Positions 2 to 27,594 of a DNA stretch of 31,075 nucleotides are shown piece by piece (the stretch's first letter is position 1; every line of letters starts with the position of its first letter). Below the pieces are notes generated by a model that saw nothing but the letters and a program-made list of their open reading frames with translations, was not told where the DNA came from and did not search any database. A program made the position numbers and the translations under genes. The DNA is taken from contig JBIKTS010000001.1 of the NCBI GenBank assembly GCA_044347985.1, positions 1-31,075 on the forward strand. Direction: 5' to 3'. This stretch comes from Candidatus Babeliales bacterium (lineage in GTDB: Bacteria; Babelota; Babeliae; Babelales; JAUPTZ01).

Positions 2-220
2 AAACAAAAAAAACTTCAAACGCTCTTCCAGCACACGCAAGCACATCGGACCTCTGCTGACTTTAAAGAAGAAACAAAACAGCTTTATAAACAAAAAAGA
101 ACCGAGCATCGGCATGAAAAAGCAATTGTGAAAGAAAAACAATCATTCAAAGAAGCCCAAGAACAAGCGATCCAAAAAAGACAAAATATCCATAACGCAG
201 CGAGAAATGCTTTACGATAA
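2..220 (+). CDS. 3' end of a hypothetical K/Q/E-rich coiled-coil protein (starts before the window)
   Basis: Open frame from nt 2 reads KQKKLQTLFQHTQAH...QAIQKRQNIHNAARNALR to TAA at 218-220. Not in the ORF track because it has no start in the window. Confidence 0.7.
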   Translation, partial: KQKKLQTLFQHTQAHRTSADFKEETKQLYKQKRTEHRHEKAIVKEKQSFKEAQEQAIQKRQNIHNAARNALR

Positions 221-312
221 TAGATTTTTATTAAAATCTGAGTATACTCAATTATATCTCCTGCATTATTCCATGCATATGCAATCTCATTTTTACTCTA
301 TCAAAACGCACC

Positions 313-981
313 ATGAATCACATTCTTCGGGGTTTATCCTCTTTATTTTTGATGCTTGCAGTACACATGCCCTGTGAAGCAAAACTATCAAGAAAGCATC
401 AAAAGACCATTCTCTATTCTGTTCTTGGCACAGGTCTTGTTGCTATCACTGCAGCAGGAGCGGCATATGTGTATGCCACACATGGCAGTAAATCGAAAAA
501 TAAGGTCCGCATTCCAATACTAGATCTCCCACCAATACGTGAAGTAGGTGATGGCAACGTTCCAAAAACTCCAAGAAAGCCTGAATTACTCGACCTTCTT
601 CAAAGCCCCTCATCTCTCGCACAAACTACTCCAGCATCTGGCACATCACCCTCTTTCTTTCTCTCACCAGATACTTCAGGCGATTCACTAATGTACTCAC
701 CGCATACGCCGAGTGATTTTAATAGAACAGACACACCTAAACACACAACACCGAAGGCAAACACAAATGCACGTCCCCCGCGCACACCATTTAGAAGAGG
801 GACAACATCATATAACGATGCCGGAGTTCTCGTTCGAGAACAAATAAAATATAGCGGCGAGGGAATGCCAGCAGCTCATGTAGGCGCAACACCAAACAAA
901 CGCCGCCCCGGCATGCCACGAATCAAATTAAGCCCCAGATATAAAAGGCAGCTTTTTGGCAAATCACCAAAACACAATTGA
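313..981 (+). CDS. Hypothetical exported/membrane-anchored protein with S/T-P-rich disordered tail
   Basis: Signal-like N-terminus ending CEA-K, hydrophobic segment ILYSVLGTGLVAITAAGAAYVYA, then a Pro/Ser/Thr-rich basic tail. Confidence 0.8.
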   Translation: MNHILRGLSSLFLMLAVHMPCEAKLSRKHQKTILYSVLGTGLVAITAAGAAYVYATHGSKSKNKVRIPILDLPPIREVGDGNVPKTPRKPELLDLLQSPSSLAQTTPASGTSPSFFLSPDTSGDSLMYSPHTPSDFNRTDTPKHTTPKANTNARPPRTPFRRGTTSYNDAGVLVREQIKYSGEGMPAAHVGATPNKRRPGMPRIKLSPRYKRQLFGKSPKHN

Positions 982-1003
982 CGTCGCGGTAAGTTTTATG
1001 ACC

Positions 1004-1023
1004 AAGGCTCATTTGCCTTTTTT
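1004..1023 (+). terminator. Weak intrinsic terminator for 313..981
   Basis: AAGGC-tcattt-GCCTT followed by TTTT, about 22 nt after the stop. Confidence 0.4.
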
Positions 1024-1086
1024 AGAAGATTACATTGCTTTCATTGCCCGATCTGCGCCCACTGTTCAAATCGGTTTCAGGTTTTG

Positions 1087-23952: not shown

Positions 23953-25884
23953 TTATGATTCAGGCGCTTGCCGAGACGCTTGCGTAAGAGCTCCCACAAA
24001 CGCACTACGAAGAGGTGACCAGCGAGTTCGTCTTGCGATTTCTTCATCAAACAAACGACGAGTTGTTCCTTCTTGGTCAGTTTCAGCAAATTCAGCACTC
24101 TTAATGAGAGCATCAACAGTCATCCCACAACTGTCAGGAATGTCAACGCGCGCATTGTTCTCGAGTAAAAATTTTATCACTTGTTCATCTTCATATGGCA
24201 TTACCTGATGAAGCACTGTGCTCTGATATGAAGAATATTGCGAAACAAGATTAATATCGGCTCCGCGCGTTAAAAGAAAAGAAGCAAGAGCAAAGCGCTC
24301 ATCAAGAGACATTCTTAAACGATCATTAAAAATTTTCATAAAAGGAGAAAACCCTTTTTTATTATACCCATCAACATAAGCACCTCGATCAAGCAGACAC
24401 TGCATGACCGCTATTTTATGTGGGATACTTGATCGTATAACAGCATGCAAAGGAGTATCTCCCTCAGAATCATGTGCGTTAGGATTTATACCAGCATCCA
24501 GTAACCTGTTTAATGTCGCAAACCAATTAGGATCACGGTACACCCGACTAACAATATAATCAGTCACTTCAGAAACCGTAACTATAGCACCTTTTGCTTG
24601 TAGTTCAGCTACCAAGGTATCTTGAACTCCTCTTCTGAGAGCTTCACACAAAGATCCTCGAAGATCATTAGCGCCATTATCTAAAAGAAATCTCACTGCT
24701 TCCAAATCAGCAGATCCAACACAATATGCCAATAAAGGCAACTCAGAAAGAAATATCCCTCCCTGATTGATATCAGCTCCTGCATCTAATAATAATTGAG
24801 CCAACCCTACATTGGATGGTTTTTTATAAGCTTCATCAAAACCTAATGCTATAGCCAAAAGAGAAACATTTCGATCAGGAATATTGACCTGAGCGCCACG
24901 ATCCAACAATAACCTAACCATTGCTTCGTTATTGTTTTCTAGAGCATAGCGCAAAGGATCTCCAATCTCACAACTTCCATTCACTGACATACCAGAATCA
25001 AGAAGAGCGGTCACTGTATCTATATCATTTCTCTTCACAGCAACTTCCAATTGTGGCTCAGGCGGCAGTGGAGGAAAATGAGACGCTAAACGATCTAAAA
25101 CTGCGTCTGCTATCGCACTCAAAGCGGCTGTATGTGGATCAGAAGGATCTCGACTCCCAAGCATTCTAGACATTATCTGTGAACGAGATTGATCTACCCA
25201 GCTACCCTGGTTCAGGTTAGTAACAGTGCCTGACGCCGCTCCATCAACTGTTGGCCCTGGCTGAAATGCTGTATCCCTTAATGGTTGCACAGGAACTGGA
25301 TCAACTAACGATAAAGGCATGTTTGGACACGCAACCACCAATAACCCCGGCATCTCTGCGTGCACACGTTGAGATGCATCAAAAACCTCACGTTTACCTG
25401 TATGCAATAATGGCAACTCAGATGCATTAGATAATCGCCTCATCTGAGCACGTGCAGCAACTATCGCCAGTGTCATGATTGCAGCGCTTCCTAAACAAAT
25501 CCCCCACTTTGCACTAACACTCAACCCCCTGTTTCTACGCGTAAGCTGATTAAGCAGTAGCTGAATCGACACCTTTGTATCGTTTGCAAGTGACATCTTG
25601 ACTAAATCTTTCTTTAACTGAAGGCACTGACGTTTAAAATTTTTTGGTGGCCGCCCCCCTTTAAAATCCATCCAATCAATCAGTTTATAAAGTGCCTCAA
25701 GAACTTTTTGCGCAGCCTGAGTACCTTCTGCTTCTAATTTTTCAATTGCCACCTCTGATAATTGCTGCAATTGAGGATTTTTTGCCATAATTGAGCCAGG
25801 CATAAACTCCACAGTAGTGCTTTGAATTGAACCTATCGACAGGGCTGCAACAATACCCACAATACTTATTCTCATGTAATTCAT
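23953..25884 (-). CDS. Ankyrin-repeat protein with signal peptide, family linker domain and membrane anchor
   Basis: About nine ankyrin-like repeats (LLLDRGAQVN, LLLDAGADIN, GDTPLHAV, FLLTRGADIN). N-terminal GSIMAKNPQ module. Confidence 0.9.
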   Translation of the reverse strand: MNYMRISIVGIVAALSIGSIQSTTVEFMPGSIMAKNPQLQQLSEVAIEKLEAEGTQAAQKVLEALYKLIDWMDFKGGRPPKNFKRQCLQLKKDLVKMSLANDTKVSIQLLLNQLTRRNRGLSVSAKWGICLGSAAIMTLAIVAARAQMRRLSNASELPLLHTGKREVFDASQRVHAEMPGLLVVACPNMPLSLVDPVPVQPLRDTAFQPGPTVDGAASGTVTNLNQGSWVDQSRSQIMSRMLGSRDPSDPHTAALSAIADAVLDRLASHFPPLPPEPQLEVAVKRNDIDTVTALLDSGMSVNGSCEIGDPLRYALENNNEAMVRLLLDRGAQVNIPDRNVSLLAIALGFDEAYKKPSNVGLAQLLLDAGADINQGGIFLSELPLLAYCVGSADLEAVRFLLDNGANDLRGSLCEALRRGVQDTLVAELQAKGAIVTVSEVTDYIVSRVYRDPNWFATLNRLLDAGINPNAHDSEGDTPLHAVIRSSIPHKIAVMQCLLDRGAYVDGYNKKGFSPFMKIFNDRLRMSLDERFALASFLLTRGADINLVSQYSSYQSTVLHQVMPYEDEQVIKFLLENNARVDIPDSCGMTVDALIKSAEFAETDQEGTTRRLFDEEIARRTRWSPLRSAFVGALTQASRQAPES

Positions 25885-25918
25885 ATGTTATCCAATAATA
25901 AAAATGCTATCTCAATGG

Positions 25919-26731
25919 TTACGCGTACAGTTGAACTTCTGGCGATTGCAGCGGCTGCTCCATTGCAGGGTTTTCTACAGGCTGATACACCGGATTTGGA
26001 TCATGGGTCGGCGTAACTGGAAAACCTCCTGCTGGCACTTCAGACTTGGGCCCTGTTGGTGGGCTAGGAAGGCGTCTAAATTGATCCCATAACGAACTCA
26101 ATAAACTTTTCTCATCAGAAGCATCAGGCGCAACTGCACGACCACCTTTACGTTTATGCATGCGTATTGAGCTTCCCATACCCCCTGAAGGATAGTCATC
26201 TGAACCCCAGCCACCACCTGAACTGCCTCCCAAACCTTGATGGTAGTTCCTTTGAAGCCATTGCCTTCTCGCATATACAGCAGCTCCGGCAGTACCACCC
26301 AGCAACGCTAAAGCAGCCAAAGATGTTGTAACCGCGGTAACCACTGCTTTGCGCACTAGTGCGCGTCTTGCACGCGTTGCAAATTGCCTCAAAAGCTTCT
26401 TTTGTATGGTGCTCAGCACAGTATTGGACTTAACACTGCGCAAAAACTCTTTTGCTCGTGCACGAAACTCTTTAACAGACTTTCTTTTTTTCAAAAGCAC
26501 CCATTCGGAGAGTTGATTAAATTTGGCGGTAAAATCAGTATCGTGAACCGTACGAGCAACGTCCTGGGCTTGCTCATACAGCGCCGCAATTTGAGGGTTT
26601 TTTGCCAGTAATGAACCACTCTGATATGCAGTAGCCACATTCTTTTTTACATTCTTCTTTGCATCAAGCGTCGCTCCGAAAAGCAGACAACTCAATAAAA
26701 CACTCATGCAACGATACTGCAAATTATTCAT
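25919..26731 (-). CDS. Modular family member with Gly/Ser- and Pro-rich tail
   Basis: Start ATG 26731 after GGAG. Signal ending LDA-K, GSLLAKNPQ module, hydrophobic anchor, disordered tail. Confidence 0.8.
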   Translation of the reverse strand: MNNLQYRCMSVLLSCLLFGATLDAKKNVKKNVATAYQSGSLLAKNPQIAALYEQAQDVARTVHDTDFTAKFNQLSEWVLLKKRKSVKEFRARAKEFLRSVKSNTVLSTIQKKLLRQFATRARRALVRKAVVTAVTTSLAALALLGGTAGAAVYARRQWLQRNYHQGLGGSSGGGWGSDDYPSGGMGSSIRMHKRKGGRAVAPDASDEKSLLSSLWDQFRRLPSPPTGPKSEVPAGGFPVTPTHDPNPVYQPVENPAMEQPLQSPEVQLYA

Positions 26732-26876
26732 ACATATTCTCCATATAACATCATAACTCACTATACATTATCATACTCTTAAAAGACCATAAGTTGTTTA
26801 GGTTCAAACTGGTGGCCACGTAATCTCATTTTAATCAACAATCTGGATCGCCACGGCACGCAGTGCCTCGCGAAGA

Positions 26877-27449
26877 CTAGCGCTGTGATGGTGGCGAAGG
26901 ATAGCCTGGTGGCGGTACAACAACCGCAACCCACGGTGAATCAATAGGCGGCGCCGAAGGAGCATGAGGATCTTTTGGCAAAGATTCCTTATTCCACTTC
27001 ACCACACCAATCACCCCTGCAGCAGCCACAACTGCTAAACTTGCTATCACAACAGGAGCAACCAATTGTCGCTTTTTCTTACGCAGTCGCCGGCACACAT
27101 CACCAAATAATGCTTTTTCATTATCTGTCAGCCACTCAGATGCGTTTACTTTTTTGGCTAAATTTTTGAGACGCATATGAAATTTCGCCGGCGCCTTACC
27201 TTTTTTGAGACAAGCCCAATCAGCCAGCGCGCGCAATTCACGTGTTATTTCCACAGTGCCTTGAAGCGTAAAAAATGTATCAAGAAGACGGTGATATGCT
27301 TCAGAGAGTGTAGCATCTTTTGCCAGCACTGATCCGGGCTGACACTGGAAAAAAGTTTCACGAGAGCTCAGAACTCGCAGCTCTGCTGCAGATACTGACA
27401 AAACACAACTAAACGCAAAAATTATAAACCCATACAAAGGATTACTCAT
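26877..27449 (-). CDS. Modular family member with short Pro-rich tail
   Basis: Start ATG 27449 after GAGGG. GSVLAKD module, LADWACLKKGK, anchor LVAPVVIASLAVVAAAGVIGVV. Confidence 0.8.
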   Translation of the reverse strand: MSNPLYGFIIFAFSCVLSVSAAELRVLSSRETFFQCQPGSVLAKDATLSEAYHRLLDTFFTLQGTVEITRELRALADWACLKKGKAPAKFHMRLKNLAKKVNASEWLTDNEKALFGDVCRRLRKKKRQLVAPVVIASLAVVAAAGVIGVVKWNKESLPKDPHAPSAPPIDSPWVAVVVPPPGYPSPPSQR

Positions 27450-27497
27450 ATATCCCTCTAACATAAAAGATTATGTTTTAATTATAAAAACCCATTC

Positions 27498-27581
27498 TTT
27501 TAAGGTACCAGAGATAACATTAATTGCAAGAGCAAGGCAGCCCTATCAAAATTTATACGTAACTCTCAACTGACCGCCACT
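27498..27581. repeat. Direct repeat, copy 1 (84 bp)
   Basis: 77/84 identical to 29552..29635. On the - strand it encodes SGGQLRVTYKF-stop and carries TTGCAA-N16-TACCTT. Confidence 0.95.
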
Positions 27582-27594
27582 TAAGTCCCTCGAA

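Follow-up and report, generated by a model that had tools for sequence, protein, structure and literature searches.

The schizont surface proteins TaSP and p104 of Theileria carry phospho-Thr-Pro epitopes, and their phosphorylation follows the cell cycle of the host (PMC4117643). Those of Theileria annulata are the closest functional analogues (PMC4117643, PMC3649978) of P0001, the product of a small gene near the beginning of a 31,075-nucleotide stretch of bacterial DNA. This stretch, the window, comprises positions 1 to 31,075 of contig JBIKTS010000001.1, which is contig 57 of assembly GCA_044347985.1 (G000; 858 kb in 121 contigs, 84% complete). The organism that carries the gene is a Dependentiae (TM6) bacterium of a freshwater genus, and window DNA is present in lake, pond and freshwater metagenomes. 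The atpA of G000 is 87% identical to that of a same-genus metagenome-assembled genome and 61% identical to that of a record named candidate division TM6 bacterium. The order of G000 holds many families, with genomes of 0.8–1.9 Mb.

Those Dependentiae that have been cultured live as obligate intracellular parasites in protists. The group is widespread and nearly all of it is uncultured; much of its proteome bears signal peptides, with many orphans among these proteins, and we know of none whose mechanism is understood. A very large share of orphan proteins is reportedly exported by Dependentiae, and in C. destructans a putative signal peptide was found on 44% of the coding sequences, a set in which orphans were enriched (PMC6561590).

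P0001 is like TaSP and p104 in being anchored, largely disordered and proline-rich, in having many S/T-P dipeptides, and in being encoded by a polymorphic lineage-specific gene. Theileria, however, is a eukaryote that lies free in the host cytosol and the exposure of its proteins is established, whereas P0001 belongs to a diderm bacterium, its exposure and phosphorylation are predicted, and no homology connects the two. The Inc proteins of chlamydiae have a host-facing tail, and some of them use phospho-dependent linear motifs. With these P0001 shares its small size and its orphan status, and its two close N-terminal hydrophobic segments (residues 3–21 and 32–56, with a basic loop between them) may or may not amount to the bilobed hydrophobic domain of Inc proteins. 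Inc proteins are type III exported; in contrast, no FHIPEP was found in G000, the first segment of P0001 is short and resembles a signal peptide, and there is no sequence similarity. Tir of enteropathogenic Escherichia coli, TarP of Chlamydia and the EPIYA effectors likewise combine a disordered region and clustered host-kinase motifs with rapid, often recombinational evolution. They reach the host through type III or type IV secretion systems (T3SS, T4SS) and are substrates of tyrosine kinases, whereas the sites of P0001 are Ser/Thr-Pro and no such system was found. Tir did appear as a feature-space neighbour of P0001 in ESM Atlas, with a score of 0.48 that is far below a meaningful level. 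The Cip/Kip proteins p21 and p27 share disorder with P0001 and, in the P0001 allele only, an R-x-L-F-G string, but P0001 has no CDI match, no kinase-inhibitory segment and no Cy motif conserved in its family, and it is a membrane-anchored bacterial protein. Finally, the ETRAMP proteins of Plasmodium have a signal peptide, a short segment and one transmembrane (TM) helix, and their charged tail points towards the host across the vacuolar membrane; their resemblance to P0001 is one of architecture and composition and not of homology, the match being below threshold.

We found 13 [ST]P sites in P0001 (T86, S98, T106, S112, S118, S129, T132, T141, T146, T158, T193, S207 and S218). Three of them extend to [ST]-P-x-[KR] (TPRK at 86, TPFR at 158 and TPNK at 193). 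The cluster exceeds chance: shuffling of the ~165-residue post-TM tail gave 4.4 expected sites, and 13 of 1,000,000 shuffles reached 13 (p = 1.3e-5), while the reverse dipeptide P[ST] occurred only 3 times. Tandem repeats that might lie behind the excess were searched for in P0001 and none was found. Genome-wide statistics were taken over the ~780 open reading frames (ORFs) called on the whole G000 assembly. The ratio of observed to expected [ST]P was 3.0 in P0001 and 1.18 when pooled genome-wide, and P0001 ranked 1st by density and 2nd by p-value. The full consensus of cyclin-dependent kinases (CDKs) was marginal in P0001, with 3 sites against 0.7 expected in shuffles (p ~0.03).

As a separate observation, pooling of the 98 single-TM G000 ORFs whose N-terminus resembles a signal peptide gave observed/expected [ST]P ratios of 0.96 before the TM helix and, even when P0001 was left out, 1.36 after it, a mild genome-wide asymmetry.

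The first-pass annotation of this ORF, made from the letters of the window, had placed 13 S/T-P dipeptides in its last ~140 aa. All of them are present, but the prolines there number 20 and not about 23, which is the count for the 165-aa post-TM stretch. The strings that it quoted (TPRK, TPFR, TPNK, KRQLFG, KRRPGMPRIK and AAGAAYVYA) were all located in the translation: KRRPGMPRIK corresponds to residues 196–205, AAGAAYVYA to residues 47–55, and KRQLFG has its Arg, R212, at 946–948.

The family of P0001 was recovered in steps. A word-indexed single-sequence search of 5.8 billion proteins returned no relative beyond P0001 itself, exhaustive phmmer searching identified the homologs P0003, P0004 and P0005 (E 9e-30 to 3e-10), and a profile search added P0006 to P0009. 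A third profile search found no further family members, nor did scanning a genome collection with the family alignment reveal a relative. The resulting set thus comprised eight alleles (P0001 and P0003–P0009), of which P0005–P0009 are closely related, leaving ~4 independent lineages.

The S/T-P enrichment was maintained across this set. Observed/expected [ST]P counts for the single alleles were 13/4.5, 16/6.1, 10/3.2, 7/3.2, 7/3.6, 6/3.9, 9/4.3 and 8/4.1. For the S/T-P sites, the conservation check proposed by the first-pass annotation came out in its favour, with enrichment in every ortholog, three invariant T-P sites and interchange of S and T elsewhere. The invariant sites were T86-P87, T132-P133 and T146-P147 (8/8 alleles). 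Another site is L-T-P-E in some alleles and L-S-P-E in others, and P208, which 3 alleles retain, is preceded in them by S, D or T. P-x-[ST]-P was enriched in all eight alleles (p 0.000 to 0.037) and [ST]-P-x-[KR] reached 3–6 times the shuffle expectation in most (p 0.001 to 0.09). Taken together, both extended consensuses stood at 3–10 times expectation in most alleles (p 0.000–0.09), values that do not separate the kinase classes and are partly a byproduct of the [ST]P excess.

As a control for the alignment, tails were shuffled independently and realigned with the same aligner. The real tails had 2 conserved [ST]P column pairs against 0.03 in this control, and 23 invariant columns against 4.5. 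Judged by sequence, the cluster has the look expected of a proline-directed multisite phospho-acceptor region. The Cdc4-type phosphodegron was tried as a reading of L-[LV]-T-P and rejected, the motif being trailed by basic residues. Residues 154–159 read R-P-P-R-T-P (proline-directed) in P0001 and P0003 and R-S-[RC]-R-I-S (basophilic R-R-x-S) in the other six alleles, which looks like a change of consensus type at a single homologous site.

The gene is real and accessory, and it is confined to a narrow clade of a freshwater Dependentiae genus. The seven orthologs come from other metagenomes, and like P0001 they all have a predicted signal peptide, one Ala/Gly-rich TM helix and a basic tail. 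The frame is open over 222–279 codons in all eight alleles, many in-frame indels notwithstanding. The identical P0001 protein was called on 3 independent contigs and identical DNA was found in 4 lake-water metagenomes. When the family profile was run against the order's 260 remaining species representatives (189 with a completeness of 90% or more) it matched none of them, and no paralog of P0001 was found in G000. Seven of the eight members (on the contigs of all but P0008) occupy the same slot, with the order uvrC (reverse), a 148-aa signal-peptide gene, the P0001-family gene and atpA (reverse); in the P0005–P0009 clade one or more additional genes, a PP2C included, precede atpA. Two genomes of the same genus, G001 and G003, have an unrelated protein of 256/279 aa in this position (L011 3996–4766 in G001, L012 3852–4691 in G003; no Pfam match), which carries a signal peptide and, at its C-terminal end, a TM helix; the slot is therefore a site of gene replacement.

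Several other features of the neighbourhood were recorded. A membrane-anchored PP2C lies between the slot and atpA in the P0005–P0009 clade (L020 10438–12120, L105 3061–4377, L107 2330–2638). In G002 a PP2C gene adjoins the atpA 3' end (L016 1–1416), on a contig that stops short of the slot, and the window lineage has no PP2C gene between slot and atpA. The upstream 148-aa protein (window 2–220; full-length for instance at L018 5461–5907) consists of a signal peptide followed by a K/R/E/Q-rich helical sequence. It has no Pfam match and is conserved genus-wide, its dN/dS ratio (omega) of 0.05–0.08 contrasting sharply with that of the P0001 gene. Downstream, between the P0001 gene and the atpA stop, the non-coding segment 1162–1246, which contains a terminator-like hairpin (1208–1237, + strand), is 85–87% identical in the same-genus and same-family genomes G001, G003 and G005, whereas the adjacent coding island cannot be aligned. 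It lies just beyond the 3' border of the divergence island (~1065–1070), has no Rfam match, and fits a separate small RNA candidate of the earlier annotation.

The P0001 gene forms a divergence island and has evolved rapidly and as a mosaic. Between the window and L018, AtpA was 97.4% identical in amino acids (dN 0.021, dS 1.23) and P0001 46% (dN 0.52, dS 0.98). In a sliding comparison of the same pair, DNA identity was 80–93% in the flanks and mostly 20–57% over ~200–1065, and the block encoding residues 166–203 reached 65–77% against 20–50% in the remaining tail. Between the near-identical strains L018 and L019, UvrC was 100% identical, the 148-aa protein 97% and the P0001-family protein 54%, with a dS of 1.18 for the P0001-family gene against 0.05–0.14 in the flanks. 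Their sliding-window identity stayed at 95–100% to about codon 45–50 (the end of the TM helix), fell to ~40% in the tail and ~120 nt of the 3' untranslated region (UTR), and then abruptly returned to 100%. The pattern is one of recombinational exchange of an allelic tail cassette. L103 and L104 form another mosaic pair, whose breakpoint is close to codon 180. The borders of the island were without meaningful direct or inverted repeats.

Omega in close pairs was 0.76–1.17 for the tail, 0.2–0.7 for the N-terminal module and ~0.05 for uvrC and the 148-aa gene. Within-strain hypervariation was considered and set aside: contigs from four other lake metagenomes carry the same P0001 allele with essentially no variants. 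The accessory, fast-evolving and recombining behaviour of the gene resembles what is typical of host-interaction genes.

The features of the locus are collected in Table 1. Seven residues of the N-terminus are invariant in the eight alleles (M1, L8, L11, A16, P20, C21 and A23). The hydrophobic segment at residues 3–21 coincides with a helix at 2–18 in the AlphaFold2 (AF2) model, and cleavage of a signal peptide may be deduced from these features. A lipoprotein anchored through the invariant Cys21 was rejected as a candidate, the Pro at −1 being incompatible with a lipobox. The best 19-residue Kyte-Doolittle window of the TM helix scored 1.74, the 27th percentile of G000 polytopic TM helices; low hydrophobicity as a sign of stop-transfer escape was discarded, the value lying within the normal range and being uninformative.

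Table 1. Features of the P0001 locus, with positions in the window and residue numbers of P0001
Feature	Position	Strand	Basis
Divergence island: promoter region, whole coding sequence and ~85 nt of 3' UTR	200..1065	.	Sliding comparison with L018
Hairpin (222–239), then TATACT −10-like box (243–248), downstream of the 148-aa gene's stop codon	222..248	+	Sequence
Coding sequence (CDS) of P0001, 222 aa, stop codon included	313..981	+	ORF listing, translation (313–978)
Signal-peptide-like N-terminus, residues 1–23	313..381	+	One Arg, ~12-residue h-region, P-C-x-A before Lys
Short basic loop, residues 24–31, net charge ~+4	382..405	+	Sequence; S26 invariant, basic character in all alleles
Single Ala/Gly-rich TM helix, residues 32–56	406..480	+	Hydropathy; T32, Y35, G39 and Y54 invariant
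Basic, predicted disordered tail, residues 57–222, holding all 13 [ST]P	481..978	+	AF2, composition
T86-P87 (P-K-T-P-R-K in P0001)	568..573	+	Invariant, 8/8 alleles
T132-P133, P-x-T-P context	706..711	+	Invariant, 8/8 alleles; P at −2 in 7/8
T146-P147	748..753	+	Invariant, 8/8 alleles
Most conserved tail block, residues 166–203, Y-x-D-[AG]-G-V-L-[VI]...G-M...G...K...R	808..921	+	Alignment
R-Q-L-F-G, Cy-like, allele-specific	946..960	+	Sequence; short AF2 helix 208–215

The tail contains 27 K+R and 12 D+E, and 76% of its residues are disorder-promoting. The AF2 model, built on the 8-sequence alignment, had a mean predicted local distance difference test (pLDDT) score of 49 and a predicted template modelling (pTM) score of 0.15, with no fold in the tail; its only helices were the N-terminal one and a short one at 208–215 (pLDDT ~60). 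The tail is therefore predicted to be intrinsically disordered. In the block 166–203 seven residues are invariant in the eight alleles (D169, G171, V172, L173, M185, G191 and R203), and the basic C-terminal cluster, which might be read as a nuclear localisation signal, shows loose conservation. A FFAT-like (VAP-binding) reading of the Y-x-D-[AG]-G block was considered and set aside, its upstream flank being basic and not acidic and its position 7 not acidic. Upstream of the gene, the hairpin and a TATA[CA]T box are kept in a 6-allele alignment, and the segment is likely to be the gene's own promoter on this sequence evidence; a consensus promoter scan gave no full sigma-70 match there.

P0001 had no Pfam match at E <= 0.01, Pfam searching with all 8 family members gave nothing usable, and the searches directed at more distant relationships returned little. 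PDB profile searching gave nothing relevant, and ESM Atlas features and structure gave nothing usable (best score 0.62, TM-scores ~0.2). ETRAMP (PF09716) was hit by 1 of the 8 family members at E = 0.013 and by none at gathering score. The first-pass annotation had also suggested that P0001 was a linker-less relative of the array family encoded further along the window. This kinship did not hold up: BLASTP of P0001 against the array protein P0002 gave E = 1.7, no array member was among the BLAST hits of the P0001 N-terminus or tail against all G000 ORFs, and the two proteins share only a 7-residue Ala/Gly TM string, whose pattern AGAA-x(0-2)-VYA occurs in just these two. The array members (23953–29502) have their TM helix at ~127–164, while P0001 has 8–11 residues between its hydrophobic segments and no ~100-aa helical module. 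In the array members themselves we observed a recurrent layout of signal peptide, ~100-aa module, TM helix at ~95–165 and a long C-terminal portion that is ankyrin, PP2C or of unknown type. About 20 G000 ORFs have it, four of them in the window (23953–25884, 25919–26761, 26877–27464 and 27595–29502) and ~15 more on other contigs. For a genome of 858 kb this expansion is large.

Neither G000 nor any of 5 other genomes of its family, two of which are 97–98% complete, had a match to the protein kinase family Pkinase (PF00069). In contrast, eukaryote-type PP2C domains were found five times in G000 (contigs C57, C111 with two hits, C115 and C77). Five PP2C domains without a Pkinase match point to traffic with host phospho-signalling. 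The envelope and secretion genes found in G000 were those of Sec, signal peptidase I, three secretins and one ATPase of the type II secretion system/type IV pilus class.

The reading of these data that we favour, tentatively, is that P0001 is a host-facing linear-motif scaffold, or a substrate for host proline-directed kinases. P0001 would be a small bitopic membrane protein with a Sec-type signal peptide, an 8-residue basic loop, a TM helix and a ~165-residue disordered tail. This tail would act as a string of short linear motifs and not as a fold, the motifs being the S/T-P cluster (many sites in P-x-T-P or T-P-x-K/R context) and the C-proximal block. It may be displayed at the parasite–host interface, on the bacterial surface, on vesicles or on a host-derived membrane, where host proline-directed kinases of the CDK or mitogen-activated protein kinase (MAPK) class might phosphorylate it, or readers of phospho-S/T-P or PxxP might bind it. 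The role of P0001 could then be that of a substrate, a decoy or a docking scaffold. Selection would hold the motif islands while the intervening sequence drifts or diversifies, and tail cassettes would be swapped between strains by recombination. A host-displayed tail is the most likely arrangement because the S/T-P sites are maintained, no Pkinase was found, the lifestyle is intracellular and the gene evolves in the manner of host-interaction genes.

Several points weigh against a host-facing tail, and exposure is its weak link. The label 'exported' in the first-pass annotation comes solely from the signal-peptide-like N-terminus, and an N-terminal hydrophobic segment is found on ~1/3 of G000 ORFs. 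In the textbook topology, a stop-transfer helix behind a cleaved signal peptide leaves the tail in the bacterial cytoplasm. The positive-inside rule is indecisive because both flanks of the TM helix are basic, and the sequence does not decide on which side of the membrane the tail lies. No match to T3SS FHIPEP (PF00771) or T4SS VirB4 was found in G000 (84% complete), and there is therefore no known route for a TM protein to a host membrane. The tail omega near 1 is equally expected of a weakly constrained disordered spacer. S, T and P made up 9 of the 23 invariant columns against 33% of the composition, with no clear over-representation in what was one tail-only alignment. Finally, no RNA or protein data were found for the gene, a search of RNA-only runs not having been made.

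In two other readings P0001 has no partner in the host. The tail may belong to an envelope protein with an inner-membrane anchor and a Pro/Thr-rich, polyproline-II-like spacer crossing the periplasm or lying on the surface, whose C-proximal block contacts a component of the wall or outer membrane. The S/T-P sites would then be structural or of glycosylation type, and the variability would reflect low constraint or selection by phage or host recognition. We consider this possible, though on the doubtful side. The anchor, the Pro-rich disorder and the short conserved C-proximal block recall tethers in the style of TonB, TolA and ZipA; an omega near 1 suits a spacer, the post-TM [ST]P enrichment is mildly general (1.36), and no effector-type secretion system was found. 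Yet the motifs are isolated conserved islands, with neither a tandem repeat nor a repetitive Pro-Thr linker, and a spacer needs neither the asymmetry of 13 [ST]P against 3 P[ST] nor the P-x-T-P and T-P-x-K/R contexts. Neither TonB_C nor SPOR nor any other envelope domain was found by Pfam or PDB profile searching, and absence from 260 related genomes and replacement within the genus are not what a housekeeping tether would show. An unlikely alternative keeps the default topology, which the normal TM hydrophobicity allows, and makes P0001 a type I inner-membrane protein whose cytoplasm-facing tail is a disordered adaptor or regulator of a bacterial partner, for example a PP2C anchored in the same orientation. 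The PP2C genes that adjoin the family gene in the P0005–P0009 clade, and atpA in G002, would suit such a partnership; however, no PF00069 Ser/Thr kinase was found that could write the sites, and hypervariable, recombining and clade-restricted behaviour is abnormal for cytoplasmic regulators. A cluster of positive charge directly after a cleavage site is unfavourable for Sec export. The +4 cluster that follows the predicted cleavage site of P0001 disfavours the export of that end, and the topology is accordingly not a clean one.

The remaining two explanations are far less probable. The first-pass annotation had likened P0001 to a CDK substrate or inhibitor, and this comparison divides: the S/T-P cluster is above chance and maintained, while the cyclin-docking inhibitor part is unsupported. 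What speaks for an inhibitor or mimic of the p21/p27 kind, acting through RxLFG and CDK sites, is the R-Q-L-F-G of P0001 with its short AF2 helix and the 3–6-fold excess of [ST]-P-x-[KR] in most alleles. However, the p21/p27-like string becomes KQLL in P0003, is out of register in P0004 and is absent in P0005–P0009, and [KR]xL[FLIMV] occurred in 31% of shuffled tails, the RxL by itself being no better than chance. CDI (PF02234) had no match at E <= 1 in any of the 8 members, there is no Cip/Kip similarity, the AF2 model of the tail lacks an element like a kinase-inhibitory domain, and the full-consensus excess is for the most part what abundant [ST]P in a tail of basic character produces. We therefore think it very improbable that P0001 is such an inhibitor, and this framing should be dropped. 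Least probable of all is a non-functional ORF, arisen by chance or decaying within a variable intergenic island. The tail omega near 1, the orphan status and the lack of a fold and of a clear Shine-Dalgarno sequence would be expected of it, but the eight alleles have stayed open through saturating divergence and in-frame indels, the N-terminal module has an omega of 0.2–0.7, the invariant tail columns far exceed the shuffled control, and an identical allele persists in several lakes.

The host-facing reading can be carried further, to a version that we regard as speculative and rather doubtful. The parasite's own anchored PP2Cs might erase T-P phosphorylation written by the host, which would couple the bacterium to the cell cycle or signalling of the host without a T3SS or T4SS; the tail cassettes would then track hosts or their defences, and P0001 would be a bacterial counterpart of TaSP and p104. 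If the tail instead faces the bacterial cytoplasm or periplasm, P0001 is simply a fast-evolving envelope orphan.

P0001 founds a new orphan family and would be a pathogen protein with host-type linear motifs in a phylum from which no such protein has been characterised. Its coding sequence gives a concrete candidate for host–parasite signalling, in which a few T-P motifs are invariant, one tail block is conserved and the membrane anchor is defined. The hypervariable cassettes merit attention, as do the multiple PP2Cs in a genome where no Pkinase-family kinase was found. By its mosaic and near-neutral evolution the gene, together with its slot between the 148-aa gene and atpA, stands out as a hotspot at which strains diversify, and it could serve as a marker of host association when lake populations are followed.

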